DNA of 64,000 nt from Candidatus Micrarchaeota archaeon (GCA_040753215.1 JBFMEZ010000029.1:29394-93393), one strand, 5' to 3'; shown: positions 2,969-60,872, counted from the stretch's first letter. Notes: a model not told the origin generated them from the letters alone. Program-made: numbers and translations.

Positions 2969-2978
2969 TATCCTACTT

Positions 2979-3140
2979 ATGGAACTCAAACAGGCCATCG
3001 TCATTCGCACCGACCTTGACATGGGCAAAGGCAAATTATGCGCCCAAGCAGCACACGCCTCCCTCTCCGCCCGGAAAAACGCGGGGGAAGCGTCCCCCCC
3101 ATTTTTACCGGTCATTCTGACCCCCCTCCACTTCCCTTAG
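2979..3140 (+). pseudogene. decoy 5' fragment of pth2 (31 codons, synonymously diverged) fused in-frame to hairpin element; 53-codon ORF ending TAG
   Basis: [31 protein letters not shown] matches Pth2 N-terminus at 3217; then ..[22 protein letters not shown]. Confidence 0.6.
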
Positions 3141-3216
3141 CCATCCTTGGCACGCCTCCTTACGCACCTCCGCGCATCTAATATCAATATATATCTATCA
3201 TAACCAATCATTACTT
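3072..3216 (+). repeat. 5'-end-associated hairpin element, copy A (AAAAACGCGGGGGA-AGCG-TCCCCCCCATTTTT core plus AT-rich promoter-like tail)
   Basis: Core shared with copies at 21060 and 31384; 6-bp GC stem + T5; tail contains TATA-like ATATATAT 30 nt before pth2 ATG. Confidence 0.6.
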
Positions 3217-4152: not shown

Positions 4153-5895
4153 TCATTTATACACAACAATCTTCTTTATCTCCGCAAGCAGCTCCTTCTC
4201 ATTCTCACTTAGAGAATTTACCCGTTCTTCCCATTTGAAAACCTGCCCCTTCCCCATCGCCGTATAAAGCACATCCCCTTCCTTAACGTCCTTCCCGAGC
4301 ACAATCTCATCCGATGAAACCGCCACTTTCGCCCCGCTCTCCGCCTCTTCTATCGATTTCCCTTCGCTCTGTATTCCTTTTACCTCCCCGACATCCGCCC
4401 CTTCCGCGCTCATGAGCCTTACCCCCCTCTTCAGCTTCCCCGCCTCCACCTCAATCCCGAAAACCGCGGGCTTGCTCAGCCTGAAGAAGAACCCCTTCAG
4501 CACCTTTATCCTCGCGGGCCACGGCAGCTCCGCCTCCAGCTCCCTCTTCTCCCTCCCCCTCTCCTCCGCCTTCCATGCCTCGTAATCCTCTATGAACTTG
4601 TAAATCACGTTGCTCCAGATGATGGGGACTCCCCCCGCCTCGGCCTCGCTTCTCGCCTCGTCCATGACCTCCACGTTGAACCCGAAAATAACCCCGTCAT
4701 ACCTGTTCTCCGCCCTCACCGCCTTTGCCGCAGCCACGTCCGCCCTAGCCACAGCCCCGATATCCGCCTTCCTCACCTTTATCCCGTTCTTCGCAAAAAG
4801 CGCAAGTATCGCCTCTATGCTTCCCAGCGAATCCGCCTTCACTATCACCCCCTCCTCCCCGCTTTCAAACAGCAGCTGCTTCGCCTGCGCCTCTATCTCC
4901 CTCTTCTGCTCCTCAAAATCCTTCACCACGTAAAGGGGCGAGCCCGGAATCACGCCCTCCAGGTCCGGCGCCAGTATTTTCACTCCAGCCGCCGCCTCTA
5001 TATTATCCAGATAGGTGTATTTCTCCTTCGCGCCCTTCGCCAGGTTCGGCTCAAGCAGCGCCCTCACTTTTGTTTTCCTCACCCCGCCCCTGGCAAGAAA
5101 TACTATCTCATCCCCCTTCGCAATCACGCCATCGTACAGCACCACGTCCACGGTGCTCCCCAGCCCCTTCTCCTCCTTAACCTCCAGCACTGTCGCCTTC
5201 CCCTTCCCCAATCCCAATTCCAATCTCTTCTCCATGAATTTCTGGCTAAGCCCCGCAATCAAGAGCAGAAGCTCCGCCAGCCCCTCCCTCGTCTTCGCGC
5301 TGAGCGGTATGATCGCCACCTGCTTCCTGAAATCCGCAATCCTGTCAAACCTCTCGCAATCAAACCCGTGCGTCGAGAGCGCCCCCATCAGCTCATAGAT
5401 TTTCGCATCCACCGCCTCCTGCACGTGCGGCGGCTGGTTCGCGAATGATTTCAGGAAGGAGTCCGTGCCCTGCTTCTTCCACCCATGAATCAAATCTATT
5501 TTATTCGCCGCCACCACAAAAGGGGTTTTGCACTGCTTGAGTATGCGTATGCTCTCAATCGTCTGCGGCTGGAACCCCTGCGCCATGTCCACTACGAGAA
5601 TGGCCATGTCCGCGATGCTCCCGCCCCTCTCCCTCAGATTCGTAAATGCCTCATGCCCCGGCGTATCAATAAACAGCAATCCCGGAATCCCGATTTTTAT
5701 CTTCATTATTTCCGCAACCGGCGCAGAGGTCTTCTCTATGGCTTCGCGGGGCAGGTAGCTCGCCCCAATCATCTGTGTTATCGCTCCCGCCTCCTTCGCC
5801 GCGACGGCGGTACCCCTAACCGCGTCGAGAAGTGTGGTCTTCCCATGGTCCACATGCGCAAGCAAAACAATAATCGGGGACCTCAGCTTTGCCAT
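4153..5895 (-). CDS. infB: translation initiation factor aIF5B (IF2-like GTPase)
   Basis: AHVDHGKTTLLD, DTPGH, NKID G-motifs; ~580 aa; ORF to 5910, Met at 5895. Confidence 0.9.
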   Translation of the reverse strand: MAKLRSPIIVLLAHVDHGKTTLLDAVRGTAVAAKEAGAITQMIGASYLPREAIEKTSAPVAEIMKIKIGIPGLLFIDTPGHEAFTNLRERGGSIADMAILVVDMAQGFQPQTIESIRILKQCKTPFVVAANKIDLIHGWKKQGTDSFLKSFANQPPHVQEAVDAKIYELMGALSTHGFDCERFDRIADFRKQVAIIPLSAKTREGLAELLLLIAGLSQKFMEKRLELGLGKGKATVLEVKEEKGLGSTVDVVLYDGVIAKGDEIVFLARGGVRKTKVRALLEPNLAKGAKEKYTYLDNIEAAAGVKILAPDLEGVIPGSPLYVVKDFEEQKREIEAQAKQLLFESGEEGVIVKADSLGSIEAILALFAKNGIKVRKADIGAVARADVAAAKAVRAENRYDGVIFGFNVEVMDEARSEAEAGGVPIIWSNVIYKFIEDYEAWKAEERGREKRELEAELPWPARIKVLKGFFFRLSKPAVFGIEVEAGKLKRGVRLMSAEGADVGEVKGIQSEGKSIEEAESGAKVAVSSDEIVLGKDVKEGDVLYTAMGKGQVFKWEERVNSLSENEKELLAEIKKIVVYK

Positions 5896-21044: not shown

Positions 21045-21182
21045 TGCTCATGGCAATCGCAAGAAAAAACGCGGGGGAAGCGTCCCCCCCATTTTCCTCC
21101 ACCTTTCTGACCCCCCTCCACTTCGCTTTGAGGCGCTTTGAACGCGCTCCTTACGCAAGGGGCAACACAGGGGTGAACTGAA
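21045..21182 (+). repeat. 5'-end-associated hairpin element, copy B, with 12-nt decoy of rpl29 start (ATGGCAATCGCA); 43-codon read-through ORF 21050-21181
   Basis: AAAAAACGCGGGGGAAGCGTCCCCCCCATTTT core identical to copy A; ends GGGGTGAACTGAA-ATG (new RBS for rpl29). Confidence 0.65.
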
Positions 21183-30132: not shown

Positions 30133-30942
30133 ATGATAACCACCGGAAACTTCTTCTGGATAGTCACCCTCCTCGGCATAGTTTACTCGCTCTCAATCCG
30201 CTTCATCCAGATGAGATTCACGGACCAGGAGAGGATGAAATCCCTCCAGAAGCAGATGAACGACCTTAACAAGGAATACTTCTCCGCAATGAAATCCGGC
30301 AACAAGAAGCGCATGGATTCCATCCAGGAGGAGCAGAACAAGCTGATGCCCCAGTTCAGCGGGATGATGATGGGCCAGCTCAAGCTCATGGCTGCGATAA
30401 TATCCATATTCCTCGCCTTCATGGCCGTGGTGAACGCGCTCGACCCGTTCCTCCAGGACGACAAGGTCTTCGAGCTATTCCCGTCCGGCACCCAGCAAAC
30501 AGCGTCCTCCCGGTTCTGCGGTTCCTTCCCAGTCTCCTGCTCTTCCTCCGGCCCTTGGCTCGTGGAGGTCACCGCCTATTCCGGGGGTTCAGAAAAAGGG
30601 GCCAACAGCACTTACATCTATTGCGGCAGCGAAGGCGGAATCCGCCCCTCGCCCGTAACCAGGGGCACCCCCTTCCCAATAACAACCGATAAAAAAGTTT
30701 ATGCGCAGAATGATACTGCCACGGTGTGCATTTCCGCACCCGTAGGCACAGACCGCGCGGAGGGAAAAACCAACTCGGGCACGTGGTTCATGGTTCCGCT
30801 CCCATTCGCCATACCCGTGCTTAACGTGGACGTGATAAACGGGGCGAACATCTGGTTCATCCTCGTTTCCATAATATCCGGCCTGGTTTTCTCCTTCGCA
30901 TGGGGAAAAATAAAGAAGAAAGACGAAAAGGTGAAATCATGA
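30133..30942 (+). CDS. DUF106/EMC3-Oxa1-like membrane insertase homolog with ~100-aa Cys/Ser/Thr/Gly-rich extracytoplasmic insertion
   Basis: Conserved post-adk position; TM1 + coiled region + TM2/3 typical of DUF106; extra segment FELFPSGTQQ..TNSGTWFMVP. Confidence 0.6.
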   Translation: MITTGNFFWIVTLLGIVYSLSIRFIQMRFTDQERMKSLQKQMNDLNKEYFSAMKSGNKKRMDSIQEEQNKLMPQFSGMMMGQLKLMAAIISIFLAFMAVVNALDPFLQDDKVFELFPSGTQQTASSRFCGSFPVSCSSSGPWLVEVTAYSGGSEKGANSTYIYCGSEGGIRPSPVTRGTPFPITTDKKVYAQNDTATVCISAPVGTDRAEGKTNSGTWFMVPLPFAIPVLNVDVINGANIWFILVSIISGLVFSFAWGKIKKKDEKVKS

Positions 30943-31250
30943 CGAAAAGGAAAGACCGCTCAACAGCAATAAGAAAAATCAAAAGGCGCGTGCCTTCCGG
31001 CGAAAGCAGGGAATATTTCAGGCGCAGGCAAAAGAAGCCGAAGGCCTCGTGCGCCCTCTGCCGCTCCGCGCTACGTGGAATAGGCTCCGGGGCGAAGACC
31101 GAGAGGAGGCCCAACCGCAAATTCGCCGGCAACCTGTGCCACCGCTGCTCCGCCCGCATACTGGTGGAGGCGCAGCGCGTCCGCGAGAAAACGAAATCCC
31201 TGGACGATGTTGAGCTTCTCTACAGGAAATATGTGCAGGGCCTGATATGA
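30939..31250 (+). CDS. rpl34e: ribosomal protein eL34
   Basis: MTKRKDRSTAIRKIKRRVPSG.. zinc-ribbon CxxC..CxxC; ATGA overlap with upstream gene. Confidence 0.85.
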   Translation: MTKRKDRSTAIRKIKRRVPSGESREYFRRRQKKPKASCALCRSALRGIGSGAKTERRPNRKFAGNLCHRCSARILVEAQRVREKTKSLDDVELLYRKYVQGLI

Positions 31251-31294
31251 GTTCCCGGTTTCCCGTTTCCGGGAGCCGGTTGCGGGTGAATGCA

Positions 31295-31469
31295 GATGAT
31301 AATAACAGTATGGGGATGGACCGGTGCAGGGAAGAATACCCTCGGCGAGCTTCTCGCAAAGCGCCTCGGCTACCGCACCACCAAAAACGCGGAGGGGGAG
31401 ACCCCCTCCCCATTTTTAGGTGTCATTCTGACCCTCCCCCCGGTTCTTTCGAATGAGGTGAATGCATGA
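31295..31469 (+). repeat. 5'-end-associated hairpin element, copy C, preceded by ~88-nt decoy of cmk 5' end; 57-codon read-through ORF ending ATGA-overlapped with true cmk start
   Basis: 69 nt identical to cmk 31478-31546 plus 19 diverged nt; core AAAAACGCGGAGGGGGAGACCCCCTCCCCATTTTT with compensatory stem changes relative to copies A/B. Confidence 0.65.
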
Positions 31470-31984
31470 TTATCACGGTCTGGGGATGGACCGGTGCAGG
31501 GAAGAATACCCTCGGCGAGCTTCTCGCAAAGCGCCTCGGCTACCGCACCGTTTCTCCTACGTTTAAGGACCTCGCGGCAAAGGAGGGAATCTCCCTTCTT
31601 GAATTCCAGAAGAAGGCAGAGAAGGACCCTGACATAGACAGGAAGTTCGACGAGCTCCTCAAGGAAGAAGCCGGGAAGGGCAACTGCATCGTTACCACCT
31701 GGCTCGGCCCCTGGATGGTCCCCGCGGATTTCCGCATCCTGGTGTTCGCTCCGGAGAAGGTGCGCATCGAGCGCATCGCGAAGAGGGAATCCGTCTCCCA
31801 GAAAGAAGCGGCAAAATACGTGCGCGAGAAGGATTCCGGCAACATAAAGAGGTACAAGAACGTATATGGAATCGACATAACGGATACAAGCTCCTTCGAC
31901 CTCGCCCTGAGCGCGGAAACCTACCGCCCGGAGCAGATGGTCGAGATTGCCCTGTTGGCAATAGAAAAGAAAATGAAGAAATGA
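31466..31984 (+). CDS. cmk: cytidylate kinase (archaeal type)
   Basis: 172 aa, WGWTGAGKNT P-loop. Confidence 0.85.
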   Translation: MIITVWGWTGAGKNTLGELLAKRLGYRTVSPTFKDLAAKEGISLLEFQKKAEKDPDIDRKFDELLKEEAGKGNCIVTTWLGPWMVPADFRILVFAPEKVRIERIAKRESVSQKEAAKYVREKDSGNIKRYKNVYGIDITDTSSFDLALSAETYRPEQMVEIALLAIEKKMKK

Positions 31985-32158: not shown

Positions 32159-32177
32159 GCTACCGTATTTTTGCGTG

Positions 32178-32657
32178 TTATTCAGCCATATCCGCCAGCG
32201 CCCTCCGGATCTTTTCCCTGAATTTCGGCAGCCACCTTTCCAATTCCACTAATTCAGGCAATGCCCTTCTTCTGATTAGTTCGTCTATCGCCCCTTCACT
32301 CAAATCATCAAAGCACACCCCGCACTTGGCCAGTTTCACCAAGCCTCCATTTCCGCCTGATCCCAGTCGTTCTGCCGCAAGCTCTGCCATCTCCCTGTCC
32401 TGCCGCGTCGGCTGAAACTGCCCGCTTTTCAAATAAATTATATGCACCGAGTCGTCCTCGCTAAGGAATGCGAGCAGCTTCTTTATCCTGTTTATTCCCA
32501 TCTCCTTACAATGCAACAAAGCCGGCAGCGCCTCTTCGAAAACAGTGCTTCTCGCCCTGCATTCAACCATAGGCTCTTTTGGGAACTCTTTCTTGCAGCT
32601 GCCCATCGCTATTGTAGCGCACACAACTGCTGTTACAACTGCTTTTCCAGTCTTCAT
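32178..32657 (-). CDS. hypothetical exported/lipoprotein-like protein
   Basis: 159 aa; N-terminal signal-like MKTGKAVVTAVVCATIAMGSC. Confidence 0.4.
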   Translation of the reverse strand: MKTGKAVVTAVVCATIAMGSCKKEFPKEPMVECRARSTVFEEALPALLHCKEMGINRIKKLLAFLSEDDSVHIIYLKSGQFQPTRQDREMAELAAERLGSGGNGGLVKLAKCGVCFDDLSEGAIDELIRRRALPELVELERWLPKFREKIRRALADMAE

Positions 32658-32667
32658 ATTTCATCAC

Positions 32668-33270
32668 CTATATTTTCAATTCCAGCCTGCCCAGCTCCCG
32701 CCTTTCCGCCGTCTTATAGTTGCCAGTAGCAGGGTCCTTCGTCTGGTCATAGACCATAGTAAACACTATCGAGTCATCTCCGACTCTATATTCTGAAAAT
32801 ACGCGCCCGCATTGCCCATCATGGGGATAGGGCTGATGGACTTCGCCAAGGTATCTAGGCTTCCCATCCCCCTCTTTCATTCCATAGAAGTAGATATCTG
32901 CTCCTGATGGAATAGGGGACCATCTGTACCGATAAGCATAATTCCACAATTCGATTATACCTATTTTTTCCTGGCCGTCTCCACGCTCGAATACTTCCAC
33001 ACCAACCTTGTAATCCAGATGGCGACCTTGCGATGCCAATAGCTTTCCGAAGCATTCCAATTTTTCTCTCAGGTCGTCCGTCGTGAGTGCTCTTATAGCT
33101 AGCTTTGCCGTACTCAGTTCTCTTTCTAGCTCATATATGCGCTCATGGCCAGCGCGGTCAAGTGCGAAATCAAGCGCGAACCCCTCCAACAGCCTGAACG
33201 CGTTGCTTCGCGGCCTTTGGCTGCCTGCGCTTTCGGTTTTTGCCCGTTCGGTCGTCCCCCCATTTTTCAT
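32668..33270 (-). CDS. hypothetical protein
   Basis: 200 aa, probably co-transcribed with 32178-32657. Confidence 0.4.
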   Translation of the reverse strand: MKNGGTTERAKTESAGSQRPRSNAFRLLEGFALDFALDRAGHERIYELERELSTAKLAIRALTTDDLREKLECFGKLLASQGRHLDYKVGVEVFERGDGQEKIGIIELWNYAYRYRWSPIPSGADIYFYGMKEGDGKPRYLGEVHQPYPHDGQCGRVFSEYRVGDDSIVFTMVYDQTKDPATGNYKTAERRELGRLELKI

Positions 33271-33334
33271 TTGCCATCACTGATTACAACACGCAAGCGC
33301 AATATTTATATTCTCGTGGTTACATAATTACCAC

Positions 33335-34063
33335 ATGATAAACAAAGAAGCCCTTGAAGCCCTGGGCCTCACAGAAAACGATTCACGAGTCTGCATCACT
33401 CTGCTCACCCACGGCCCCCAGAGGGTTGCGGATTTGGAGAGGATCGTAGGGATACACAGGAGGAACCTCTACGACTCGCTCAGCAGGCTGGAAAAAATGG
33501 AAGTTGTCAATTCTTTCATCCGTAATGGAGTTCGCTATTTTCAGATTGCAAGCATGGATTTGCTGAGCGACATGCTCAGGAAGAAAGAAGAGGAGATACA
33601 TGGGTTTCTTTCTGGAATAAAGAAGATTGAGAGGGAGTACAGGATCCCCGAGGTCCACATTCTCTCCGGCGAGAAGGGAGTAAAGATGCTGCTCGACGAC
33701 GAACTTAGGACCGGAAAACCAATATACGGAATAGCTTCTTCAGGATTCGAGAAAAGGGTATGGGATTATCTGGCCAGGACGCCACATAGGATTCTTGCTG
33801 CTGACCTCCCAGTGAAACTGGTCTACACCAAAAGCGATGTTGAAAACAGGAAAAAAGCGCTAAAATACGATTTCGTGGAAGTGCGCGTCGTTCCCGACGA
33901 ATACAAATCCTCGGTTGCGCTGGAGCTCTACGGAGACACTTCCTGCATAATACTAGAAAATATAATCATAAGAATAAGGGACAAGGAGGTAAACCATAAG
34001 TTTATGATGTTCTTCAACTCCCTCTGGAAGATGAGAAAAAGAACCCAAGCTCCTCTTGATTAG
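33335..34063 (+). CDS. TrmB-family transcriptional regulator (paralog 1 of 3)
   Basis: N-terminal TrmB wHTH (..LGLTENDSRVCITLLTHGPQRVADL..) plus C-terminal domain; GTGGTTACATAATTACCAC palindrome just upstream. Confidence 0.65.
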   Translation: MINKEALEALGLTENDSRVCITLLTHGPQRVADLERIVGIHRRNLYDSLSRLEKMEVVNSFIRNGVRYFQIASMDLLSDMLRKKEEEIHGFLSGIKKIEREYRIPEVHILSGEKGVKMLLDDELRTGKPIYGIASSGFEKRVWDYLARTPHRILAADLPVKLVYTKSDVENRKKALKYDFVEVRVVPDEYKSSVALELYGDTSCIILENIIIRIRDKEVNHKFMMFFNSLWKMRKRTQAPLD

Positions 34064-34111
34064 TATCAAAAAACATAACTTTATAAGCGAATTGTTATAT
34101 AATTTGATACT

Positions 34112-35642: not shown

Positions 35643-36970
35643 ACATAGAATCACATGCAAAACCTAGATACTTATACCACGGAAGCCCCCATGAAATCGA
35701 AGGCGATAAACTTTTTCCCGGGCAGGCCCGCTCCCTAGGCAACAATCCTGAAAACCTGCATTTCGGCGTTTATGCCACAGACATAAAAGATGCCGCCATC
35801 ACAATGGCGATAATCCGCTGCAGGGGCGTAGGCTCTTCCTGGTGCTCTTTTGGCGGCAAGCCCCCCTACGGCATAATTATAGAAGGTTGGCCCCAACAGG
35901 AATATTTCTACCTCTATACGCTCCCCTCAGCTACATTCGAAAAAACACACGAAAGAGGGGGGCAATGGGTCTCCCACGAACTAGTTAAACCCCTGAAGGT
36001 AGAGAAGCTCAGCGTTTCAGATTATCTTCATTTAGTCAGAAAAGCCACAGAAGAAGAGAAAAAAGACTGGTTCGAAAGATTCGGAAAGAAAATAAAAGAA
36101 GAGAGATCCAAACTCATAGAATCCCTCCTCAACAATTCCGTAGTCATAATTGACAAGCCCTGCGGCCCCACCTCCCACGAAGTCTCATCTTGGGTTCGGA
36201 AGCTCGCAGGCCTTAAGCGCACCGGCCACGCAGGCACCCTGGACCCCAATGTTTCCGGCGTCCTCCCAGTTGCCCTCGGCCGCGCCACCAAATTGCTCCA
36301 ATACATCGCCGGAAAGCGCAAATCCTACGTATGCATCGTCCGCTTCAAGAACGACCTCACAGATGCCCAGCTTGAATCCCTCTTTTCCAAATTCCGCGGC
36401 GAAATCACCCAAACCCCGCCCAAAATCTCCGCAGTGCGCAAAATCCCCCGCAAGCGCTTCGTCTACGAGCTCCGCGTCCTTGAAAGGGAAGGCAAAAAAG
36501 TCCTCTTCTACGCAGATGTGGACGCAGGCACCTATATCCGCACCCTCTGCTCTGACATGGGCAAGTTCACAGGAGGTTCCAGGATGGAGGAGCTGCGCCG
36601 CGTCGCTGTCGGCAACATTTCCGAAAAGGATGCAGTCACCCTCCAGGATTTCTCCGATGCCCTATACGCATACAGGGAGAGGAAAAACCCCTCCCTACTC
36701 CTTAGGATTCTCCACCCTCCCGAAGAGCTCATAGATGCGAAAAAGGTGTCCATCCGCCCCTCTGCAGCCGAAGCCCTCATGCACGGCGCCCAGCTCACCG
36801 CACCCGGGGTCGAATCCCTGGACGATTCCATCAGGAAGGAAGAAATAGTCAAAATCTACTGCGGAGACCGCTTCATCGGCATGGGAAAGACCATCTTTCC
36901 CGCCCGCAAGATAAAGGAAAGGACGCATGGATACGTAGTGAATATAGAGAGGATACACGCTACAGAATAA
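35639..36970 (+). CDS. cbf5: tRNA/rRNA pseudouridine synthase Cbf5 (H/ACA RNP) with ~100-130-aa non-canonical N-terminal extension
   Basis: VIIDKPCGPTSHEV..GHAGTLDPNVSGVLPVALGRATK TruB core and C-terminal PUA; no internal Met between extension and core. Confidence 0.8.
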   Translation: MNIESHAKPRYLYHGSPHEIEGDKLFPGQARSLGNNPENLHFGVYATDIKDAAITMAIIRCRGVGSSWCSFGGKPPYGIIIEGWPQQEYFYLYTLPSATFEKTHERGGQWVSHELVKPLKVEKLSVSDYLHLVRKATEEEKKDWFERFGKKIKEERSKLIESLLNNSVVIIDKPCGPTSHEVSSWVRKLAGLKRTGHAGTLDPNVSGVLPVALGRATKLLQYIAGKRKSYVCIVRFKNDLTDAQLESLFSKFRGEITQTPPKISAVRKIPRKRFVYELRVLEREGKKVLFYADVDAGTYIRTLCSDMGKFTGGSRMEELRRVAVGNISEKDAVTLQDFSDALYAYRERKNPSLLLRILHPPEELIDAKKVSIRPSAAEALMHGAQLTAPGVESLDDSIRKEEIVKIYCGDRFIGMGKTIFPARKIKERTHGYVVNIERIHATE

Positions 36971-36976
36971 GAAGAA

Positions 36977-37059
36977 CGCGAAGGGGGAGATTTGAACTCC
37001 CAATCCCTTGCGGGACATGCTTTCCAGGCATGCGCACTACCGGGTTATGCGACCTCCGC
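36977..37059 (-). tRNA. tRNA-Ser (anticodon GGA), type II with long variable arm, no encoded CCA
   Basis: Manual fold: acceptor GCGGAGG/CCTTCGC (one G-U), D-stem GCAT/GTGC, anticodon stem CATGC/GCATG loop CTGGAAA, variable arm TCCCGCAAGGGATT, T-arm GGGAG-TTCAAAT-CTCCC, discriminator G. Confidence 0.8.
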
Positions 37060-37420
37060 TCTCCTTTTTGCCATCGTGAACCTCGGCCTCTGCATCGCTG
37101 CGGCGATGTCTGGCGAAGTTCTGCGGAACTTCACCATCGCTCGGTGCAAAAAGGAGTCCAAAAACCCCAAGCACCTTCACGCTGGCGGCGAAACCGGAGC
37201 CCAAAAACCCCAGACAAAAGGGATTACTATAACGCTGCGTTTCCCTTTTATTCTTTTGCCCGTTAATTCGCGTTTTTTTCTCCCGTTTCTTCCCTCTTCC
37301 CCCGCCCAACACCCTTTTTAAGCATTTCTACGGAATATTCTCTCTACGCGTGTTCTTGCGTTCAGAGAATATGAGCCTTAACCCATTTCCTCTCGCGCGA
37401 GCCACGCATTTGGTGATTAT

Positions 37421-38146
37421 TTGGGAAGTAAAAAGAAAATACAGAAAAAGGCCCCGGAGGAGGAAAAGTCCGCCGAGGTAAAGGTGGAAGAGAAGAAGAA
37501 AGCCAAGCCCGCCCCGAGGAAGGAGGAGGCGCTCGAGCCCGGGCTCCGCGGCATCGTCCGCGTAGCGGGCAAGGATATGCGCGGCAATCTCAAGCTTTCA
37601 AGGGGGCTTATGCGCGTGCGCGGCTTCGGCCACACGATGAAGAACGTCGCAGCGAACGCCATAGCGGAGGAGCTCGGCATATCCCCCACCGAGAAGGTCG
37701 GGAAGCTCTCCGATGAGCAGATAGAGCGCATAGACAAGCTGCTCACCACCCTGCACACAAAGAACGTCCCGCCCTACCTCCTGAACAGGAGGAAGGACCC
37801 GGACACAGGCAAGGACGTCCACGTAATAATGAACGACCTCGCGTTCACGCAGCGCCAGGACATAGAGCGCGAGAAGAAGCTCTACACCTGGAGGGGGTAT
37901 AGGCACGCTTACGGAAAGAAGGTGCGTGGCCAGAGGACACGCAACACCGGAAGGAAGGGGATGGCCCTGGGAGTGATGAGGAAGACCATCCTCGCGGCAG
38001 CAGCCGCAGCCAAGGCGGGCGCAGCGGGCAAGCCCGGAGCGCCGGGGGCACCGGCCGCAGGTGCGCCCGCAGCTGGTGCGCCGGCCGGTGCGGCAGCTGC
38101 GCCAAAGGCAGCGCCGGCACCAGCCGCAAAAGAGGCCAAGAAATAG
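37421..38146 (+). CDS. rps13: ribosomal protein uS13 with KE-rich N-terminal and Ala/Gly/Pro-rich C-terminal extensions (TTG start)
   Basis: ..IVRVAGKDMRGNLKLSRGLMRVRGFG.. core; tail AAAAAKAGAAGKPGAPGAPAAGAPAAGAPAGAAAAPKAAPAPAAKEAKK. Confidence 0.8.
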   Translation: MGSKKKIQKKAPEEEKSAEVKVEEKKKAKPAPRKEEALEPGLRGIVRVAGKDMRGNLKLSRGLMRVRGFGHTMKNVAANAIAEELGISPTEKVGKLSDEQIERIDKLLTTLHTKNVPPYLLNRRKDPDTGKDVHVIMNDLAFTQRQDIEREKKLYTWRGYRHAYGKKVRGQRTRNTGRKGMALGVMRKTILAAAAAAKAGAAGKPGAPGAPAAGAPAAGAPAGAAAAPKAAPAPAAKEAKK

Positions 38147-38155
38147 GGTGTATGA

Positions 38156-38713
38156 ATGGGAGACCCAAGGAAATTCTCAAACAAGTACGAAAAGCCCAAG
38201 CGGCTTTGGGACGTCAGCAGGCTCAAGGAGGAGAAGGGCCTGAAGGGCGCCTACGGCCTCAAGAACATGAAGGAGCTCTGGGTGATGGGCAAGGAGCTCA
38301 AGAAGGCGAGGCGTGACGCCCGCCGCCTGCTCTCCCTTTCCGAGGAAGAGCGCAGGAAGGACATGCCCAAGCTCATGGGCAAGCTCCACAAGCTGGGGAT
38401 TCTTCCCCGGGACGCAAAGGTCGAGGATGTGCTGTCCCTTTCCGTGAAGGATGTCCTTGAGAGGAGGCTGCAGACCCGCGTGGTCCGCAAGGGGCTCGCA
38501 AAGACGATGGCGCAGGCGCGCCAGCTCATAACCCACGGTTTCATTGCAATCTCCGGGAGGAAAGTCTCCTCGCCCAGCTACCTCGTTTCCCATGATGAGG
38601 AGGCCGGCGTATCATATTCAAGGCCAATAGAGCTTGAGCCGGCCGCACCGGTCGAAACCGCAGAAGAAAAGGCCGGGGAGAAAGAGGAGGAGAAGCCAGC
38701 CGAGGCCGCCTAA
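38156..38713 (+). CDS. rps4: ribosomal protein uS4
   Basis: 185 aa. Confidence 0.85.
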
Positions 38714-38724
38714 GGTGTAATCCT

Positions 38725-39264
38725 ATGCCAGAAGAAAAAGAGAAAATAAAGGAGGAAGCCCCCAAAGAGGAGGCAAAGCCCGCCGAAAAGAAGCACGAGC
38801 CGGAACCGGGAACCGTAAGCGTGAAACCGGAAACCGGAAAAGCCCCTCCTGCGGAAGCGGAGAAGCCGAAGGAGAGGAAGCGCGGCAGGCTCGCGGTGGT
38901 GCACGTCTATTCTTCCAAGAACGACACGATAATAACCGCCACAGATGTAAGCGGAGCGGAAACCCTCGCATGGTCAAGCGGCGGCATGATGGTCAAGTCT
39001 TCCCGTGAGGAAGGCAAGCCCTACGCTGCGATGCAGGCAGCCGCCAAGCTGGTAAACCAGCTCAAGGACAAGGGCATAGATACAGTCCACATAAAAATCC
39101 GCGCGCCCGGCGGAAACGGCTCCAAGACTCCCGGAGGCGGCGCCCAGGCAGTCGTCCGTACAATCGCGAGGATGAAGATGCGCGTAGGGAGGATTGAGGA
39201 CGTGACCCCGCTGCCCACCGACTCCATGAAGAGGGCGGGCGGAAGGAGGGGCAGGAGGGTGTGA
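38725..39264 (+). CDS. rps11: ribosomal protein uS11 with KE/P-rich N-terminal extension
   Basis: 179 aa. Confidence 0.85.
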
Positions 39265-39947
39265 GCATGGAACTCGAAGCCATCACCGAAACCGGAAACC
39301 GCCTCTCTTTCAGGGCAAAGGGCATGCCCCTGGTGCTTGCCAACGCTATAAGGCGCTATTCCATAAACCACGTTCCCGTGATGGCGATAGACAAGGTAAC
39401 GATGTACGAGAACTCATCGCCCATCTTCGACGAATACATCGCGCACCGCATAGGCATGCTGCCCATAAAGACCCCGAAGAGCCTTCCCGCCTCCGCGGAG
39501 GTCTCCTTCGTCCTTGACGTGCAGGGCCCTAAGGTCGTTTATGCAGAGGAGCTCAAGAGCAGCGACGCCGGCATAGTCGTCGCCGAGCCCCGCATCCCCA
39601 TCGTAACCCTCACCGAGAGCCAGTCCATCCGCCTGGAGGGAAAGGCCGTTCTGGGAATCGGCAGAAAGCACGCAAAATTCCAGGCGGGCATCGCCTCCTA
39701 CGATGAGCAGGAGGACGGCACGCTGCTTATGAAAGCGGAAAGCTTCCTCAACATGGGCCCCAAAGACATGCTCGTCCGCGGCTGCAAGGCCCTGGAGGAA
39801 GACCTTGAAGAGCTATCCGATGAGCTGGGCGCCCTCTCCGGCAAGAAGAAAAAGGCAAAGAAGAAGGGAGAGGAAGCGCCAGAAGAGAAAAAGCCGAAGA
39901 AGCCCAGGGCGAAGAAGGCCAAGAAGGAAGAGAAGACCGAGGAATGA
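39261..39947 (+). CDS. rpoD: DNA-directed RNA polymerase subunit D (Rpo3) with Lys-rich C-terminal tail
   Basis: 228 aa; conserved position after S11. Confidence 0.8.
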
Positions 39948-40897
39948 CCTCTTCCGAATTCACTCCCGAAGTCCGCAAGCAACTCCTGAATAAGCAATAT
40001 GGATTGGCCGGAAGGCACTCCGCGGTGCAAATCTGTTCCTGGACAAAGAAATCCCTTAGAGGAAAGGGCTCTTGTTATAAGCAAAAATTCTACGGAGTGG
40101 AAACCTACAAATGCTGCCAGATGAGCCCCTCCGCCGCATGGTGCCAGCAATCCTGCGTCTTCTGCTGGAGGCCGATGGAGTGGATGAAGAAATCCTTTTC
40201 TTTGAAGGAGGAAGCCGATTCCCCCGAGCAAATAATAGAATCCTGCCTCGCCTCCCGCAAGAAGCTTCTCTCCGGGGTTGGCGGCGCCGCAGATGTCGAC
40301 CGCCCCCTTTTCCAGAAATCCTTTTCCGAATTCCCTTCCCATTGGGCTATTTCCTTATCTGGCGAGCCCACCCTTTACCCAAAACTCCCCGAATTGGTAA
40401 AAGCAATCCGCGCACATAAAGAAACCAAAACCATTTTCGTAGTCTCCAACGGCCAGGAGCCCTCCATGATTAAGAAATTGAAAGGAACGGGCCTCACCAA
40501 CCTCTACATCTCCGTTGATGCCCCCACCTCCGCCCTATTTAGGAAAATAAACCGCTCCATCTACCCAAATGGCTGGAGCCGCCTAAAGCGCTCCCTCTCC
40601 CTTCTCCGCACAATGGACTGCAACACAGTAATCCGCTTCACAGTAATAAAGGGAATAAACGACCTTCCCCCCATGCTTCCAAAATACGCAAAGCTCTTCT
40701 CATCCGCCTCTCCCACTTATATAGAAGTAAAAGCCTACATGTTCCTCGGCTACTCCCGCCTCCGCTTAAAGGAAGAAAACATGCCTTCCCACGAATACAT
40801 AAAGGAATTTTCTTCCCAGCTTCTGAAGTTCCTCCCTTCTTATAAACTCAGGGATGAGTGCGCTGATTCGAGGATAATTCTTCTAAAGAGTAAATAG
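39944..40897 (+). CDS. taw1: tRNA 4-demethylwyosine synthase Taw1/TYW1 (radical SAM)
   Basis: 317 aa; auxiliary Cys cluster + CQQSCVFC (Cx3Cx2C). Confidence 0.7.
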   Translation: MTSSEFTPEVRKQLLNKQYGLAGRHSAVQICSWTKKSLRGKGSCYKQKFYGVETYKCCQMSPSAAWCQQSCVFCWRPMEWMKKSFSLKEEADSPEQIIESCLASRKKLLSGVGGAADVDRPLFQKSFSEFPSHWAISLSGEPTLYPKLPELVKAIRAHKETKTIFVVSNGQEPSMIKKLKGTGLTNLYISVDAPTSALFRKINRSIYPNGWSRLKRSLSLLRTMDCNTVIRFTVIKGINDLPPMLPKYAKLFSSASPTYIEVKAYMFLGYSRLRLKEENMPSHEYIKEFSSQLLKFLPSYKLRDECADSRIILLKSK

Positions 40898-40914
40898 AAA
40901 AGAAATAGAGCCCA

Positions 40915-47326: not shown

Positions 47327-48576
47327 ATAGTGCAAGATACATAAAGAGATCAAGCGCGGATATAATGGAAGTAGTTCGCGGATTTGATCGTTACCACAGA
47401 ATGTTCAGGGAGTATACACAAAGAGGTGGAAAGGTTGGAAGTTCTTTAGACCGGGGGGCATTCACCCGCCCTCACGAGGTATTGCCTGAAGAAGCACGTT
47501 TTCTTCTTGGTGAGGGGCGGAGGAGCGGATCTTTTGCATATGGTCCGGAAGCAGGAGATGACAAATTAAGAGAAAAAATAGCGGAGGTTGAAAATAGGCG
47601 CCATGGAACTTTCTATTCGCCAGATAACGTTGCTATGCTTCCAGGTGCTTGGTCAGGAATAGTATTTGCGATAGAAGAGATCCTGAATCTAAAAAATGGA
47701 AAGATGAATAAAGAAAAAATAGCAATTATAGGGCCAACTTTATACCTGATGTTTCAGCGCATTATCAGAGACTATGGCATCGAAGTAAATGCGTATGATT
47801 TTGTAGTCCCTGGGACAGAGCGCGTCCCAACAAGTATGGATGATATGGAGTGTGTCTTTGCCGATAGACCGAAAATGATTGTAATCACAAACCCAAACAA
47901 TCCGGATGGCAAATACTTTCCACCTGCTTTACTAAGAGAGGTTATTGAAAGGGCAGGCCAAGAAGGAATTTACATCATTATGGATGAGATTCAAAACTGT
48001 TTCCCCCGCCGTGCTCGTATAGGGTACAGTTCATGGATTCAAGCGCCAAACGTAGTCCGTATGGATTCTGCTTCAAAAGCGTATGCGCTTGCAGAATACA
48101 AGACCGGATGGATGATCGCAGAACCGAGGCTGCTTGGCGACAGAATGGATGGAATTATAAGTCGTATGAGCGGGATTATGGGTAATGCTCCAAGAGCCGC
48201 AAATACGGCGTTACTTTACTTGCTTAATAGGGAATTGGAAAGAATTGCGACAGGAGTAGACTATTTATCATCTGTTCATGCAAAATTAACCAGAAAAGAA
48301 GAATTTGTCCTGGCTCATTTGGCAGCCATGGACAACATCATAGAAATAATTTTGCCACACGCCTGCATCAACCTTACGGTGCAGGTTGCATTTGATGGGA
48401 CCGATATGGAGCTAGCGAAAATATTGATGGAGAACGGAACACTTCTGATGCCTGCTAGCGGATATGGCCATAGCATAAGTCCGCCCACCCTGCGCATCAC
48501 TTTTGCAGAAAGGCAAGAAAAAGTGGAGCATTCCATGGCTGTTTTAGAGCGTGTACTTGGAGGTTATGTTTCATGA
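47320..48576 (+). CDS. PLP-dependent aminotransferase (class I/II fold)
   Basis: 418 aa; AT-rich; ..DSASKAYALAEYKTGWM.. Lys region; ATGA overlap with next gene. Confidence 0.6.
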   Translation: MNHSARYIKRSSADIMEVVRGFDRYHRMFREYTQRGGKVGSSLDRGAFTRPHEVLPEEARFLLGEGRRSGSFAYGPEAGDDKLREKIAEVENRRHGTFYSPDNVAMLPGAWSGIVFAIEEILNLKNGKMNKEKIAIIGPTLYLMFQRIIRDYGIEVNAYDFVVPGTERVPTSMDDMECVFADRPKMIVITNPNNPDGKYFPPALLREVIERAGQEGIYIIMDEIQNCFPRRARIGYSSWIQAPNVVRMDSASKAYALAEYKTGWMIAEPRLLGDRMDGIISRMSGIMGNAPRAANTALLYLLNRELERIATGVDYLSSVHAKLTRKEEFVLAHLAAMDNIIEIILPHACINLTVQVAFDGTDMELAKILMENGTLLMPASGYGHSISPPTLRITFAERQEKVEHSMAVLERVLGGYVS

Positions 48577-50147
48577 GCGATATCCTTCCCTATGATATCC
48601 TGAACAAGGGCTGGAAAGCCACCTGCAAAATCCTCTTAGGCGAGGAAATAGGCGAGCTCAGCGATTACAGGGAATGGCTCTCGGAGTTCCTTCCTCCCAC
48701 CGGAAAAACCCATTCCCACCTCTCCGGAAAGGAAGTAACCCTCGCCATGGATGCCTACTGCCCAAAATCCAGGTTCATCTCTTCCGATGAAATAAAGGAA
48801 AAGAAGCTCGCCCCCCTCTCCATAGACCAGGTAAAGGACATAGATTCCATCGCAGAAGCAATCTCAGAAAGATGGGAATACACCGGAAACAGGGTCCTCG
48901 GCAATTCCTCTTCTGTAGATTCCTCCGACCTGGTAATGGATTCCCAGTTCGTCTCCGGCTCCACCAACATCCAGCAGTCCTCCTACGTTTATTCCTCTGC
49001 CCTCGCCCGCATGGGCAGCAAATACATCTACGGCTCCCACGGCTTCGCCCAGGGCGAGTTCCTCATCCGCCACTGCGCGGGCTTCAACCTCAAGCGCCAG
49101 TTCGAGACCCACTTCATAACCGACAGCAGTGACCTCTATTTCGCATTCAACTGCATAGGCTGCAGCGAGCTCCTCTTCTCCTTCTTCCAGCGCAACAAGC
49201 GCCATTGCATAGGAAATCTCCAGCTTCCCAAGGAGAAATATCTCTCCCTCAAGAAGAAGCTCCTGTCCGAAGTGGCCTCCGAGCTTAAGAGAAACAAGCG
49301 CTTCCCATCCCTTTTCCACCTGGTTCCGAACAGCAAGCCTCGCCATTCCCTTTCCATCCCGCAATCCAGGCCCAAAGAGGACATGCCCGCAATAGACAAA
49401 GCGTTCTCCTCCGCCTTCAAGGTCATTTTCAGAAAGGATGCGCAATCCGTATTCCCATACGAAAAATGGCTCTCCCGCCAGCTCCTCGGCATAAGCGAGA
49501 TAAAGTCCCCCTTCGGCCACAAGACCTGTTTCCCAGAGACCAAGGCAATGTTCCTCTTCTTCACCGCCCCCCGCAGCCGCATGGTCTCCCTTGCCGAAGG
49601 GATGGAACTCGGAAAGCGCCACCTCGAAGAGCCGCAGCTCTCCTCCCTTTCCAGCATAATAGATAATCTGGGTGAAATCGGCTATTTCACAGCCGAATTC
49701 CTGGACGGCCCGGTCACCAACGCCATAAGCACGCCCATCGCCTACTATTCCTCCAACGTCTACAAGGCGCTGGACGCAACCCATTCCGAATACTCGGGCC
49801 TCTCCTCCCAGGTGCTGAACTCAAAATACTGCTTCGGCGGCTTCCGCATATTGGAGTCCCAGTTCTGCCTCAACTGCTACAATTCCCTCAATCTTTCCCG
49901 TTGCCTGGAAGTGGACACTTCCGAGAAATGCTCCGACTCCCTCTTCTGCCACAACTCCGAAGGGCTCGCGGAATGCATGTTTTGCTTCAATCTTAAGGGG
50001 AAGAGGTATGCAATAGGCAATTCGCCCCTTCCGCCGCAGGAATATCTCAAGGTGAAGGATTCCCTTCTTTCCCAGATGGCCGATGAACTGGAGCGCAACC
50101 ACTTGCTCCCCTACGACATATTCAACATCGGCTGTGCAGGTGCATGA
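48573..50147 (+). CDS. Cys-containing internally duplicated repeat protein, family member P1 (unknown function)
   Basis: 524 aa; N-term WKATCKILLGEEIGEL..EWLSE; halves end in C.GCSE..FSFNxRxKRHxIGN..LPxxKY and CxN....C.MFCFNxKxKRYAIGNSxLP motifs; C-term DIFNIGC. Confidence 0.5.
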   Translation: MSDILPYDILNKGWKATCKILLGEEIGELSDYREWLSEFLPPTGKTHSHLSGKEVTLAMDAYCPKSRFISSDEIKEKKLAPLSIDQVKDIDSIAEAISERWEYTGNRVLGNSSSVDSSDLVMDSQFVSGSTNIQQSSYVYSSALARMGSKYIYGSHGFAQGEFLIRHCAGFNLKRQFETHFITDSSDLYFAFNCIGCSELLFSFFQRNKRHCIGNLQLPKEKYLSLKKKLLSEVASELKRNKRFPSLFHLVPNSKPRHSLSIPQSRPKEDMPAIDKAFSSAFKVIFRKDAQSVFPYEKWLSRQLLGISEIKSPFGHKTCFPETKAMFLFFTAPRSRMVSLAEGMELGKRHLEEPQLSSLSSIIDNLGEIGYFTAEFLDGPVTNAISTPIAYYSSNVYKALDATHSEYSGLSSQVLNSKYCFGGFRILESQFCLNCYNSLNLSRCLEVDTSEKCSDSLFCHNSEGLAECMFCFNLKGKRYAIGNSPLPPQEYLKVKDSLLSQMADELERNHLLPYDIFNIGCAGA

Positions 50148-50148
50148 T

Positions 50149-51726
50149 ATGGACACATACGAAGCCCTCAACCGCTCCTGGAAATCCCTCTGCCGCCTTC
50201 TTCTGGGCGAAGAGATAGGCGAGATGAAAGAATACGAGAAATGGCTCACCCAATACCTTGAGCCCATGCGCGTGGAGCGCTCTGCAATCTCAGGCAAGGA
50301 TGTATATGTAGCGGTTCCAGAATACTGCAAAGATGCAAAATTCATCTCCCTAGAAGACACTCAATCTTCCAAGCCCGCCCCCCTCTCCATCAACGAAATC
50401 AAGGACATAGACTCAATAATGGAATCCCTCCGCGAGCGCTTCCTCTACTCCGGCAACGTCATCCTTTCCAATTCCCGCGATGTTTCCCAGAGCACCAACA
50501 TCCAGAACTCCTTCCACGTGCTCCGCTCCAACTTCATCTGGGATTCCGAATACATTGGCTACTCCTCCATGGTCCGCGGCGGCAAGCATCTTATTGGAGT
50601 AAACAACGACGCCTACTCCTCATTCATGCTCAGCAGCATGGAAACCTACAAGAACAGCCGCTGCCTGGAGCTGTGGGAATCCTTCGACTGCACCGAATCC
50701 TATTTTGTGTTCGGCTCATGGAACTGCCAGAACATCCTTTTCTCCTTCAACCAGCGCAACAGGCGCAACGTAATCGGAAACATCGAGCTCCCGCGCGACA
50801 AATTCCTTTCCCTCAAGAGCAAGTTAATAGAAGAGATGCGCGATGAGCTGAAGCGCAACAAATCCCTGCCTTCTCTCTTTGAAATCGCATCTGCCAACCT
50901 GAGGAGATCGAAAATACCCGCCGGCTTCCATACTGAAGAGATGCAGGAAGGCACGGACAAGGGCATAATAGAGGACGCATTCCGCAAGACCACGAAAATA
51001 GTCTTCGGGAAAGAGCTGCAGGACATGGATGCCTATGGGGATTGGCTCCTGCGCCACGTGATAAAAACGAAACCCGCTGTTTCCGCAGCCACGGGCAGGC
51101 CCACCTCCCTGAGCTCACACGCCCCTTACAAATTCTATCCAAGGAACCGTCTCGTGAAGATGAATGAGGCAGTGAAGCTCGGCGAAATCCTCCATATGGA
51201 TGAATCTGACATCCACTCGCTCGATTCCCTCAAGGACTCCCTCTGGAAAATCGCGTTCTTCTGCTCCGAGATAATGCTCGGCGAAAACAAAAACCTGATT
51301 GGAGTGATGCTCGCCAACCAGTCCAGCAACTGCTACAATGGTTCGGTCTATTCCTATGATGAATACTGCGGCTTCTCCTTCTGGCCAAGGGACTCCAAAT
51401 ATATGTTCGGCTCATCTATGGCCTTCTCCTCCAATTTCTGCATCAACGCCTACAATTCCCTCAACCTCTCGCGCTGTTTTGAGGTGGACGGCTGCAGCAG
51501 CTCCTCCGACCTCTACTTCTCCCACAACTGCGAGAACGCGCAGGACGCGATGTTCTGCTTCAATTCCAAGAATCTTAAGCACTCGATAGGCAATTCCGCG
51601 CTCCCGCCCGATAAATACAAGTCCCTGAAATCCTCGCTCCTCTCCCAAATCTCAGACGAGCTTGAGAAGACCAAATCCCTCAGATGGGACATCTTCAACC
51701 TGGGCTGTCCAAAGGTGCCATCCTGA
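50149..51726 (+). CDS. Cys-containing repeat protein, family member P2
   Basis: ~525 aa; same architecture as P1; start overlapping P1 stop. Confidence 0.5.
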   Translation: MDTYEALNRSWKSLCRLLLGEEIGEMKEYEKWLTQYLEPMRVERSAISGKDVYVAVPEYCKDAKFISLEDTQSSKPAPLSINEIKDIDSIMESLRERFLYSGNVILSNSRDVSQSTNIQNSFHVLRSNFIWDSEYIGYSSMVRGGKHLIGVNNDAYSSFMLSSMETYKNSRCLELWESFDCTESYFVFGSWNCQNILFSFNQRNRRNVIGNIELPRDKFLSLKSKLIEEMRDELKRNKSLPSLFEIASANLRRSKIPAGFHTEEMQEGTDKGIIEDAFRKTTKIVFGKELQDMDAYGDWLLRHVIKTKPAVSAATGRPTSLSSHAPYKFYPRNRLVKMNEAVKLGEILHMDESDIHSLDSLKDSLWKIAFFCSEIMLGENKNLIGVMLANQSSNCYNGSVYSYDEYCGFSFWPRDSKYMFGSSMAFSSNFCINAYNSLNLSRCFEVDGCSSSSDLYFSHNCENAQDAMFCFNSKNLKHSIGNSALPPDKYKSLKSSLLSQISDELEKTKSLRWDIFNLGCPKVPS

Positions 51727-55193: not shown

Positions 55194-55241
55194 TCGGATA
55201 TAGTCGCTCGTTCTTGAATCGTAAATCCTATCGGATTTCAG

Positions 55242-55315
55242 TATCGCTGCGGCGATATCTGGCAGAATTCTGCGGAATTCCGCCATCCGATAGCGGGCAA
55301 AGTTTCCGGATTTTG
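55242..55315. repeat. composite palindromic intergenic module, copy 2 (TATCGCTGCGGCGATA .. GGCAGAATTCTGCGGAATTCCGCC ..)
   Basis: Matches 1950-2062 module. Confidence 0.6.
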
Positions 55316-59308: not shown

Positions 59309-59309
59309 C

Positions 59310-60857: not shown

Positions 60858-60872
60858 TCGCAGCAGCTTTAA

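Follow-up and report, generated by a model that had tools for sequence, protein, structure and literature searches.

A structured, non-coding repeat at gene boundaries of Micrarchaeota, and the duplicated cmk start beside one of its copies

The DNA analysed here, referred to as the window, is a stretch of 64,000 nucleotides (nt) from a Candidatus Micrarchaeota archaeon (GCA_040753215.1 JBFMEZ010000029.1:29394-93393), given as one strand from 5′ to 3′. Its gene content is that of an archaeal ribosomal-protein region (rpl4, rpl23, rpl29 ... secY, adk, rpl34e, cmk, rpl14e). At cmk, whose product has a 100% identical protein on record that is annotated as the (d)CMP kinase of a Micrarchaeota metagenome-assembled genome (homology search), a repeat of 60-110 nt, termed element E, lies between two copies of the 5′ end of the gene. 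E is an interspersed, non-coding, non-autonomous, Micrarchaeota-specific, structure-conserved repeat that is undescribed in the libraries searched, and its copies very probably make up a structured family under selection for that structure.

The duplication at cmk pairs 31296-31379 with 31466-31549, 84 nt at 95% identity (repeat family D11), the final 69 nt being identical, much as the original prediction for this locus had described. All four differences fall in codons 2-5 and all are synonymous (ATA/ATT, ATA/ATC, ACA/ACG, GTA/GTC). A ribosome-binding site (RBS) stretch, GGTGAATGCA, is common to both copies, at 31285-31294 and 31457-31466. The short open reading frame (ORF) that starts with the upstream copy, previously named a decoy, has a weak Pfam match to Cytidylate_kin2 limited to its first ~30 residues, and its stop codon TGA overlaps the cmk ATG at 31466 (ATGA), again as first noted. 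Inside E, the 8-bp hairpin GGAGGGGG-AGA-CCCCCTCC at 31391-31409 is followed by CCATTTTT, whereas the other two copies in the window read GGGGGA-AGCG-TCCCCC (3083-3098 and 21073-21088); these sequences, like the peptides KNAEGET and KNAGEAS that they imply, are as originally given. The core is not a product of chance, as a 26-nt core pattern has 2 matches versus 0 in 100 shuffles and AAAAACGCGGRGGG has 4 matches versus 0.10 expected. A covariance model of E scores exactly three copies in the window, at 69-84 bits, and the next, unrelated match at 10 bits.

Read from 5′ to 3′, E opens with three variable bases (xyz), A5 and CGC, continues with a stem whose purine arm and pyrimidine arm are joined by a loop, and then runs through CCA, T5, a bulged A and the xyz complement to the box (G)TCATTCTGA and a C-rich tract with one T. 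The stem is G-rich/C-rich and 6-10 bp long. Long-form copies have an extra ~45-nt 3′ module ending in CTCCTTACGCA, and the copy at cmk (31380-31441) is a short form. In this copy, ACC (31380-82) pairs with GGT (31419-21) as a 3-bp outer helix next to the bulged A at 31418, A5 (31383-87) pairs with T5 (31413-17), CGC/CCA form an internal segment, and 31391-98 pairs with 31402-09 around the loop AGA. RNAalifold recovered both helices as one long interrupted hairpin, and the RNA fold energy of the cmk copy is -26.8 kcal/mol (z -2.3) for the + strand and -34.3 kcal/mol (z -2.9) for the - strand. Conservation of the box carries the caveat that the search pattern itself demanded TTCTGA and the pair of C's after it; TCA, immediately 5′ of TTCTGA, is near-invariant in most copies and different in several subfamilies. 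In the 3′ module of long forms, RNAalifold found no base-paired structure. That module (window 3130-3166 and 21120-21157) contains two tandem direct repeats of ~10 nt (CTTnnnnAC / CTTnnnnCG), whose variable positions tend to change together.

The core was searched as a 23-base gapped pattern in species-representative genomes, metagenomes and IMG/VR, and PLSDB and INPHARED were searched by BLAST. The species-representative genome collection holds 39 stretches with the pattern in 14 assemblies, all labelled Micrarchaeota, Micrarchaeia, Bilamarchaeaceae or unclassified archaeon, plus one 'ainarchaeum'; 11 of the 39 lie in a single 1.03-Mb contig. Metagenomes contributed 61 stretches, and a covariance model built from 43 copies gave 113 matches, 83 of them distinct, in the DNA fetched for comparison (loci labelled L0xx or L1xx; all sequences are metagenome assemblies). 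No E match was found by BLAST in PLSDB (plasmid) or INPHARED (phage), and the sole IMG/VR pattern match, a candidate viral copy, lies inside a helicase-like ORF without the hairpin and was rejected as a chance match. In Rfam 15, no family matches E at E≤10, the best sub-threshold scores being 13-21 bits against thresholds of 34-168, and an Rfam scan of the whole window placed only tRNA-Ser above its gathering threshold. In searches of the literature on Micrarchaeota/DPANN repeats, miniature inverted-repeat transposable elements (MITEs) and terminators, no account of a comparable element turned up. When 2354 ORFs from all E loci were clustered, no protein family recurred beyond orthologous loci. 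At loci shared between different assemblies, the flanks are 69-86% identical and the E core is 93-100% identical, or ~75-86% where the subtype differs. Since no neighbouring protein recurs and E is conserved above its flanks, the element is non-autonomous, long-lived and constrained.

The original prediction held that selection acts on a secondary structure rather than on the encoded peptide, and covariation across the 83 distinct copies bears this out. The helices are paired in 96.3% of cells versus 79.6% after shuffling and at most 76.5% with a slid partner, and 204 cells are doubly changed versus 76 in shuffles. Each of the three outer pairs occurs as C-G, G-C, A-U and U-A, and the main stem types are GGAGGG/CCCTCC, GGGGAG/CTCCCC and GGGGGA/TCCCCC, plus longer versions. 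A diverged copy at L115 keeps the hairpin with different letters (stem GAGGGGGA), and the variable loop extends to ~50 nt in L064 and L085. Hairpins are 16, 18, 19, 20 or 22 nt long, differences that are not multiples of three and that put the sequence downstream into another frame. Within the 'KNA' frame or immediately before it, many copies have a stop codon. Both facts argue for selection on structure, and make the similarity of the window peptides a by-product. A conserved peptide (KNA..PPFL.VILT..), suggested by in-frame reading in the three window copies, was ruled out on the same grounds. When mismatches were compared between strands (G.U versus A.C), most proved to be alignment effects in variant subfamilies; one conserved mismatch is C.A on the + strand, equivalent to G.U on the - strand, and five copies have U.G on the + strand instead.

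Table 1. Features of the cmk locus and of the other two E loci in the window
Feature	Coordinates	Strand	Remarks
rpl34e	30900..31250	+	Pfam Ribosomal_L34e; upstream of cmk
Lineage-specific spacer	31251..31295	+	CCCGG/CCGGG hairpin repeat (D9 family) and RBS stretch for the orphan cmk start
59-codon 'decoy' ORF	31290..31469	+	First 28 Cmk codons, then reads on into E
Orphan cmk 5′ end (left flank copy)	31296..31379	+	Resident-like; codons 2-5 ATA ATA ACA GTA, similar to relatives
Hairpin of E	31380..31421	+	Long, interrupted; from fold, terminator scan and covariation
Box GTCATTCTGA	31422..31431	+	Conserved in E
C-rich tract CCCTCCCCCC	31432..31441	+	Single T tracks A of purine arm, parallel
Tail, RBS GAGGTGA and cmk codons 1-5	31442..31480	+	Tail non-conserved, codons of non-resident type; tail plus non-resident cmk start sequence is GGTTCTTTCGAATGAGGTGAATGCATGATTATCACGGTC
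cmk, intact	31466..31984	+	Pfam Cytidylate_kin2, 5e-24; 31481-31549 identical to orphan copy
Orphan pth2 5′ end	2974-3071		
Second E copy	3072..3166	+	Long form ending ...CTCCTTACGCA; between orphan pth2 5′ end and intact pth2
pth2, intact	from 3212		3212-3309 is the repeated part
Orphan rpl29 start	21050-21061		12 nt
Third E copy	21062..21157	+	Long form, outer helix degenerate; after orphan rpl29 start
rpl29, intact start	21183		

Beyond the two helices, the C-rich tract also covaries with the hairpin. The position of its only T follows that of the A in the purine arm, read in parallel orientation, with GGAGGG accompanied by CCTCCC, GGGGAG by CCCCTC and GGGGGA by CCCCCT. In this register, 97.8% of cells match, versus 83.4% when shuffled and 61-75% when slid, with 74 doubly changed cells versus 25. 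The best fixed antiparallel register reaches 90.9%, with a score of 0.23 versus 0.55 for the parallel one and 39 doubly changed cells in 2 of 6 pairs. The outer-helix types ACC, AGA, CCC, CGG and GTC each occur with all three stem types or nearly so, and both matchings are kept even though the strands interleave (xyz, arm, arm, xyz complement, C-tract), an arrangement hard to obtain by simple recombination without selection. The diverged L115 copy provides a further independent variant, its C-tract CTCCCCCC again being in parallel register. A tract that covaries with the purine strand in the orientation a triplex requires is thus present. This suggests the relation expected of a pyrimidine-motif triplex (on the strand shown), a purine-motif triplex (on the other strand) or mirror-repeat H-DNA, and formation of a real triplex by E is a tentative proposal, held at roughly one chance in three.

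The genomic positions of E bear on what it might do. Its left end adjoins stop codons and tRNA ends, and about 28 of the 113 copies adjoin a tRNA gene there. Sixteen of them, each with the 16-nt hairpin, stand head-to-head with five tRNAs (Asn, Thr-CGU, Thr-UGU, Gly-UCC and Ala-GGC), ~1 nt (0-1, ARAGORN) from the tRNA 5′ end; ~10 copies, at six tRNAs, lie 0-2 nt after the tRNA 3′ end. A long co-oriented ORF stops ≤12 nt from the left end in 17 of 86 distinct contexts, versus 6.3% at random positions. By sequence, all three window copies have a G+C-rich stem-loop with at least five T within 0-2 nt, which was the definition of a terminator applied here, and at cmk the 8-bp stem includes 7 G-C pairs. 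The T-run after the stem is CCATTTTT on the + strand and GCGTTTTT on the - strand, and E is therefore terminator-like on both strands. The hairpin and T5 are plausible as a terminator, and because both strands read in this way, a two-way stop or insulator is the most economical interpretation; E would thus most likely stop or insulate transcription in both directions. That this would be its main function is a serious possibility to which we give a little less than an even chance. The head-to-head copies leave no space for a separate promoter, which points to promoter activity on the reverse strand of E, and in these copies TAAAAAT occurs ~31-37 nt upstream of the tRNA.

Other repeats occur in the same surroundings. 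A third repeat family, with two hairpins closed by TGCG loops (ATCGC-TGCG-GCGAT and GAAGTTC-TGCG-GAACTTC), is found in the window at 1970-2019, 37089-37138 and 55238-55287 and also in L007 (2089-2138), L060 and L087 (3437-3486), often within 15-30 nt of tRNA genes. The D9 family (CCGGTTTCC..GGTTTCC, with a short CCCGG/CCGGG hairpin) occurs at 1844-1881, 2032-2069, 2847-2884 and 31256-31293, the last copy being the separator between rpl34e and the orphan cmk start; alignments show that the spacer containing it (31251-31295) is missing from all five relatives in which cmk was compared. L034 1-3903 is syntenic with window 36826-40905 at 77-87% identity, with an identical tRNA-Ser(GGA) inverted relative to the window and a copy of E directly after that tRNA.

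The arrangement at cmk is not peculiar to that gene. In about a quarter of E copies, the left flank is repeated to the right of the element. The left flank copy always ends exactly at xyz, and the right copy begins 0-180 nt after the box, beyond unrelated filler; lengths are 12, 16, 18, 19, 37, 46, 65, 93, 96 and 98 nt. Chance alignments of flanks do not abut E. The flank-E-flank layout is found where genes begin (cmk, pth2 and rpl29 in the window, others in L016 and L025), where opposite-strand genes end (L022, L024), in a C/D-like small RNA gene (L013, L028) and in tRNA genes (L087, L038). In L087, the 3′ half of tRNA-Thr is repeated over 36 nt on either side of an insert made up of E and an entire GNAT acetyltransferase gene. 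In L013 (~880-1080) and L028 (reverse strand, ~3900-4070), E interrupts the first guide region of a small RNA gene that resembles the C/D-box type (GTGATGA, 12 nt, CTGA, then TGAAGA/ATGAGGA, 12 nt, CTGA); the promoter and 5′ part of this gene are duplicated. The idea that E itself is a C/D-box small RNA, prompted by the CTGA in its box and by these two copies, was rejected, as E itself lacks a C box and in both cases has been inserted into such a gene. Within the window, a perfect 30-nt repeat of the rpl4 end and rpl23 start (18115-18144 and 18309-18338) surrounds a 164-nt insert (18145-18308) that has no relatives in any fetched locus and holds a fragment of the E 5′ end, AAAAACGCGGAGGG, at 18265; this repeat yields another orphan gene start ending in an ATGA overlap.

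The differences between flank copies are informative about their history. The four differences at cmk comprise no non-synonymous change, and at pth2 there are 10 synonymous and 4 non-synonymous differences. In L024, the orphan and working 3′ ends both translate as EIFKRKLKEKVHKEGRGAGGLKTMLINFILD despite ~11 nt differences, and in L022 both translate as RETLMFDRLKGK with ~6 nt differences and different stop codons. The identical stretch of a flank pair always lies beside the left junction of E, and divergence rises toward the other end. Because the differences are almost only synonymous, and a decaying orphan would differ otherwise, the two copies acquired these differences while each was a working gene in a lineage of its own. 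At pth2, the orphan copy has the same 10-residue stretch as the closest relatives, and the working copy has KLAVQVAHAS, known from another sub-lineage; the promoter of the orphan resembles that of L114, and the promoter of the working copy resembles that of L115, where a diverged E and a working-type promoter lie upstream of pth2 without an orphan copy. The orphan pth2 copy is thus the resident allele and the working copy a mosaic. Two further observations concern the same gene: in L112 (565-1551), a LAGLIDADG-like ORF overlaps the pth2 start, and in L114 (640-680), a 6-codon relic, MELKQP*, overlaps a new pth2 start by ATGA. Together these suggest that the pth2 5′ end is a recombination hot spot in Micrarchaeota.

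At cmk, five relatives (L040, L041, L044, L107 and L109) with Cmk proteins 85-91% identical to that of the window have no E, and their rpl34e abuts or overlaps cmk (ATGA) with no insert. Codons 2-5 of the orphan copy resemble those of the five relatives and codons of the working copy do not, and E seems to have arrived recently at this gene. The shared layout, the synonymous differences and the pth2 mosaic all indicate that the duplication is a by-product of recombination with a foreign allele, and we consider it probable, by about two chances in three, that the so-called decoy is a relic of such an event. The idea of a purpose-built decoy is not supported by these comparisons, given the same layout at unrelated sites, the synonymous flank differences and the resident nature of the pth2 orphan. 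In the proposed mechanism, a donor segment from a related lineage would have begun exactly at the left end of E and carried E, the RBS and the first cmk codons. It would have been joined non-homologously after resident codon 28, at the E left end, and by a homologous crossover within codons 6-28, leaving the resident cmk start stranded upstream; the region 31442-31480 would have been imported together with E. The ATGA overlap may let ribosomes that finish the orphan ORF restart on cmk, which is a consequence of the event and not evidence of design. The composite of these readings, taken as a whole, is given slightly better than an even chance.

Several points weigh against this composite. An import that starts exactly at the left end of E has no enzyme or mechanism to explain it, and the candidates for such a start may include a recombinase, a nick site or breakage at a cruciform or triplex. 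A few flank pairs show no difference at all (100% identity over 96 nt in L013 and 65 nt in L016), and a plain target duplication fits these equally well; they could be either recent imports from near-identical cells or true duplications. A donor cmk allele with E natively upstream was not found. As for function, the diverged L115 copy has no T5 run and is preceded by a separate terminator-like hairpin, so termination cannot be the sole conserved role, and termination, promoter activity and the relevant strand of E are all read from sequence. Only three main stem types and a small number of variants underlie the parallel covariation, tracts that are runs of G or C can pair antiparallel too, by sliding, and runs of C+.G-C triples are unfavourable at neutral pH.

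A conventional origin has to be considered for both the repeat and the duplications. If E were a MITE-like transposable element, the decoy would simply be a target-site duplication produced by a staggered cut. E is indeed multi-copy, short, non-coding and without a linked enzyme, its flank copies abut the left end exactly, and the flank pairs of L013, L016 and window 18115/18309 are 100% identical; moreover, IS200/IS605 elements are reported to be common in the phylum, in >65% of Micrarchaeota genomes (PMC13343696). However, E has no terminal inverted repeats, its only inverted repeats being the internal hairpin arms, none of which join the left end to the 3′ module or tail. The duplications range over 12-98 nt with no fixed length, and the right junction is ill-defined, as unrelated filler of 5-45 nt or an entire gene intervenes there. 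The older flank copies show ~29 synonymous versus 4 non-synonymous differences, which a decaying orphan would not give, and the promoters of the two pth2 copies are different allele types. A MITE is thus improbable. A palindromic element derived from IS200/IS605, which should have a conserved target of 4-5 nt immediately 5′ of its left end and a sub-terminal hairpin at each end, was rejected in its own right, since the left flanks are unrelated (stops, tRNA ends, coding sequence), there is one hairpin only and no such gene lies beside E. A site-specific recombinase site, resembling attC or an attachment arm, with the flank repeats as attachment sites of small circular cassettes of E plus cargo, is about equally improbable. 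It would account for the 36-nt repeats of L087, which comprise the tRNA 3′ half from the anticodon loop, a classic integrase attachment site, for the bulged base, unpaired internal spacer and variable loop of the hairpin, and for the genes between directly oriented E copies in L025 and L033. What a tyrosine integrase would leave is there in part: direct repeats of target ends are found (L087 tRNA-Thr; cmk, pth2 and rpl29 in the window) and an integrase gene is not. ORF clustering detected no integrase or other recurrent protein beside E, the targets are many and unrelated, and the attC cores RYYYAAC/GTTRRRY are absent on inspection, the arms reading xyzAAAAAC...CATTTTTAz'y'x' instead. No Rfam family matches the element, and no arrays exist beyond the occasional E-gene-E. 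In addition, after a single crossover with a circle, the foreign part of the left copy would be the one next to E, and the observed copies are identical there.

The remaining explanations are much less probable still. One would make the decoy ORF and the hairpin-T5 a dedicated leader or attenuator of cmk, in which translation of the leader controls termination and cmk is reached by coupled restart. The ORF does have an RBS, runs through the hairpin-T5 and ends in ATGA with cmk, and cmk is translationally coupled to rpl34e in relatives. Yet E also lies beside pth2, rpl29, tRNAs, small RNA genes and opposite-strand genes (at their 3′ ends), other copies do not preserve the reading frame, and the whole arrangement is missing in five relatives whose Cmk is closely similar, and we regard such a leader as very unlikely. 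An equally slim chance is given to a retroelement resembling short interspersed nuclear elements, whose reverse-strand RNA would end in hairpin-U5, with short forms as 5′ truncations and flank repeats made by target-primed reverse transcription. One precise and one ragged junction, the existence of both short and long forms and the varying length of the flank repeats would fit this origin, but no reverse transcriptase lies near any copy, synonymous-only flank divergence and the pth2 allele mosaic would be unexpected, and the L087 cargo is a complete gene followed directly by a tRNA gene. A diversity-generating retroelement was likewise rejected: the cmk differences are at A in 4 of 4 cases, but the 18 pth2 differences are of all kinds, and there is no neighbouring reverse transcriptase. 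Least probable of all is an assembly artefact in which two strains were mixed at a repeat. All sequences do come from metagenomes, and the two copies look like two alleles; against this, the junction between flank end and E left end must exist in reads, the layout recurs across independent studies and assemblers, and it is found at the same locus, with diverged sequence, in three assemblies (L022, L024, L083).

A further possibility, unlikely at about one chance in four, concerns the recombination model itself: E could be a cis-acting DNA structure that combines a cruciform with a mirror repeat able to form a triplex, and DNA ends would then arise preferentially at its left boundary, as a break, a nick or the start of transfer. 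If true, segments starting at E would pass between Micrarchaeota lineages, stitched in by one homologous and one non-homologous joint, and E would be a new vehicle for allele-level exchange and small-cargo capture in ultra-small archaea. Such a vehicle would account for mosaic gene starts, for gene ends left as orphans and for islets linked to tRNAs.

The wider gene neighbourhood also differs between the window and its relatives. In relatives, a pseudouridine synthase gene of the TruB/Cbf5 type directly follows rpl14e (L040/L041 3200-4100), and in L041, a copy of E lies just after it (4203-4270). The window has an additional ~1.9 kb after rpl14e (32160-34100), which contains three ORFs, 159-242 aa in length. 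Four paralogous ORFs of ~520-570 aa form two tandem pairs at 48573-51726 and 59190-63234, with 60-80% nucleotide identity in patches; two of the four were checked and have no Pfam match.

Micrarchaeota have genomes of roughly 1 Mb and are host-dependent, and to our knowledge little is known of their regulatory signals and DNA exchange. E is a conserved signal, found throughout the lineage where tRNA, ribosomal-protein and housekeeping genes begin or end, and it probably helps to punctuate transcription. The orphan gene ends beside it would record recombination between diverged lineages, which makes allele exchange in DPANN archaea readable from sequence. The co-varying third strand is a natural test case for a G/C-rich triplex selected in vivo. 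In annotation, orphan starts will probably show up as spurious small proteins, and E should be masked or modelled.

Among known systems, E is best seen as an unusually featured member of the small structured genomic repeats. Like REP/BIME, Correia and ERIC elements, it is a short, multi-copy, non-coding imperfect palindrome at gene boundaries; those elements can serve as terminators, promoters or RNA-stability sites, and their subfamilies evolve by compensated changes. Unlike them, E is archaeal (DPANN), lacks terminal inverted repeats and a fixed short target duplication, and has a co-varying C-tract and box as well as long gene-end duplications that appear to be of foreign-allele origin; no partner transposase has been identified for it. 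Intrinsic terminators, including bidirectional ones, provide a second comparison, as the G+C-rich stem of E lies between A5 and T5, giving hairpin-U5 on both strands, and E is often placed right behind a stop codon or a tRNA 3′ end. In archaea, an oligo-T run appears to be the main requirement for termination. E differs from such terminators in its conserved extras, including an outer helix beyond the T-run, and in having one diverged member without T5.

The third strand recalls RNA triple helices (the ENE of PAN and MALAT1, pseudoknot triplexes) and the mirror repeats of H-DNA, in which a pyrimidine third strand likewise runs parallel to a purine strand; as in H-DNA, the pyrimidine arm and the downstream tract of E form a mirror repeat. 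ENE-type elements use U.A-U triples with an A-rich tail, whereas E would need runs of C+.G-C (or of G.G-C on the other strand) and has a linker of ~23 nt, and E is known here from its sequence alone. Integrase-mediated insertion into gene or tRNA ends resembles the E loci in its direct gene-end repeats around an insert and in the restoration of the gene by the incoming copy, and attC sites share the folded hairpin, bulged base, variable loop and adjoining single-gene cargo (L087); in contrast to both, E comes without an integrase, with many unrelated targets and without attC cores, and the E-proximal side of the left copy is identical. Finally, homology-facilitated illegitimate recombination and rolling-circle elements (IS91/ISCR, Helitron-type) also give one precise end followed by variable donor DNA, with one side integrating by homology and thereby bringing in pieces of neighbouring genes. 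Neither an HUH/Rep gene nor a nick motif has been identified for E, and the resemblance is one of outcome only.

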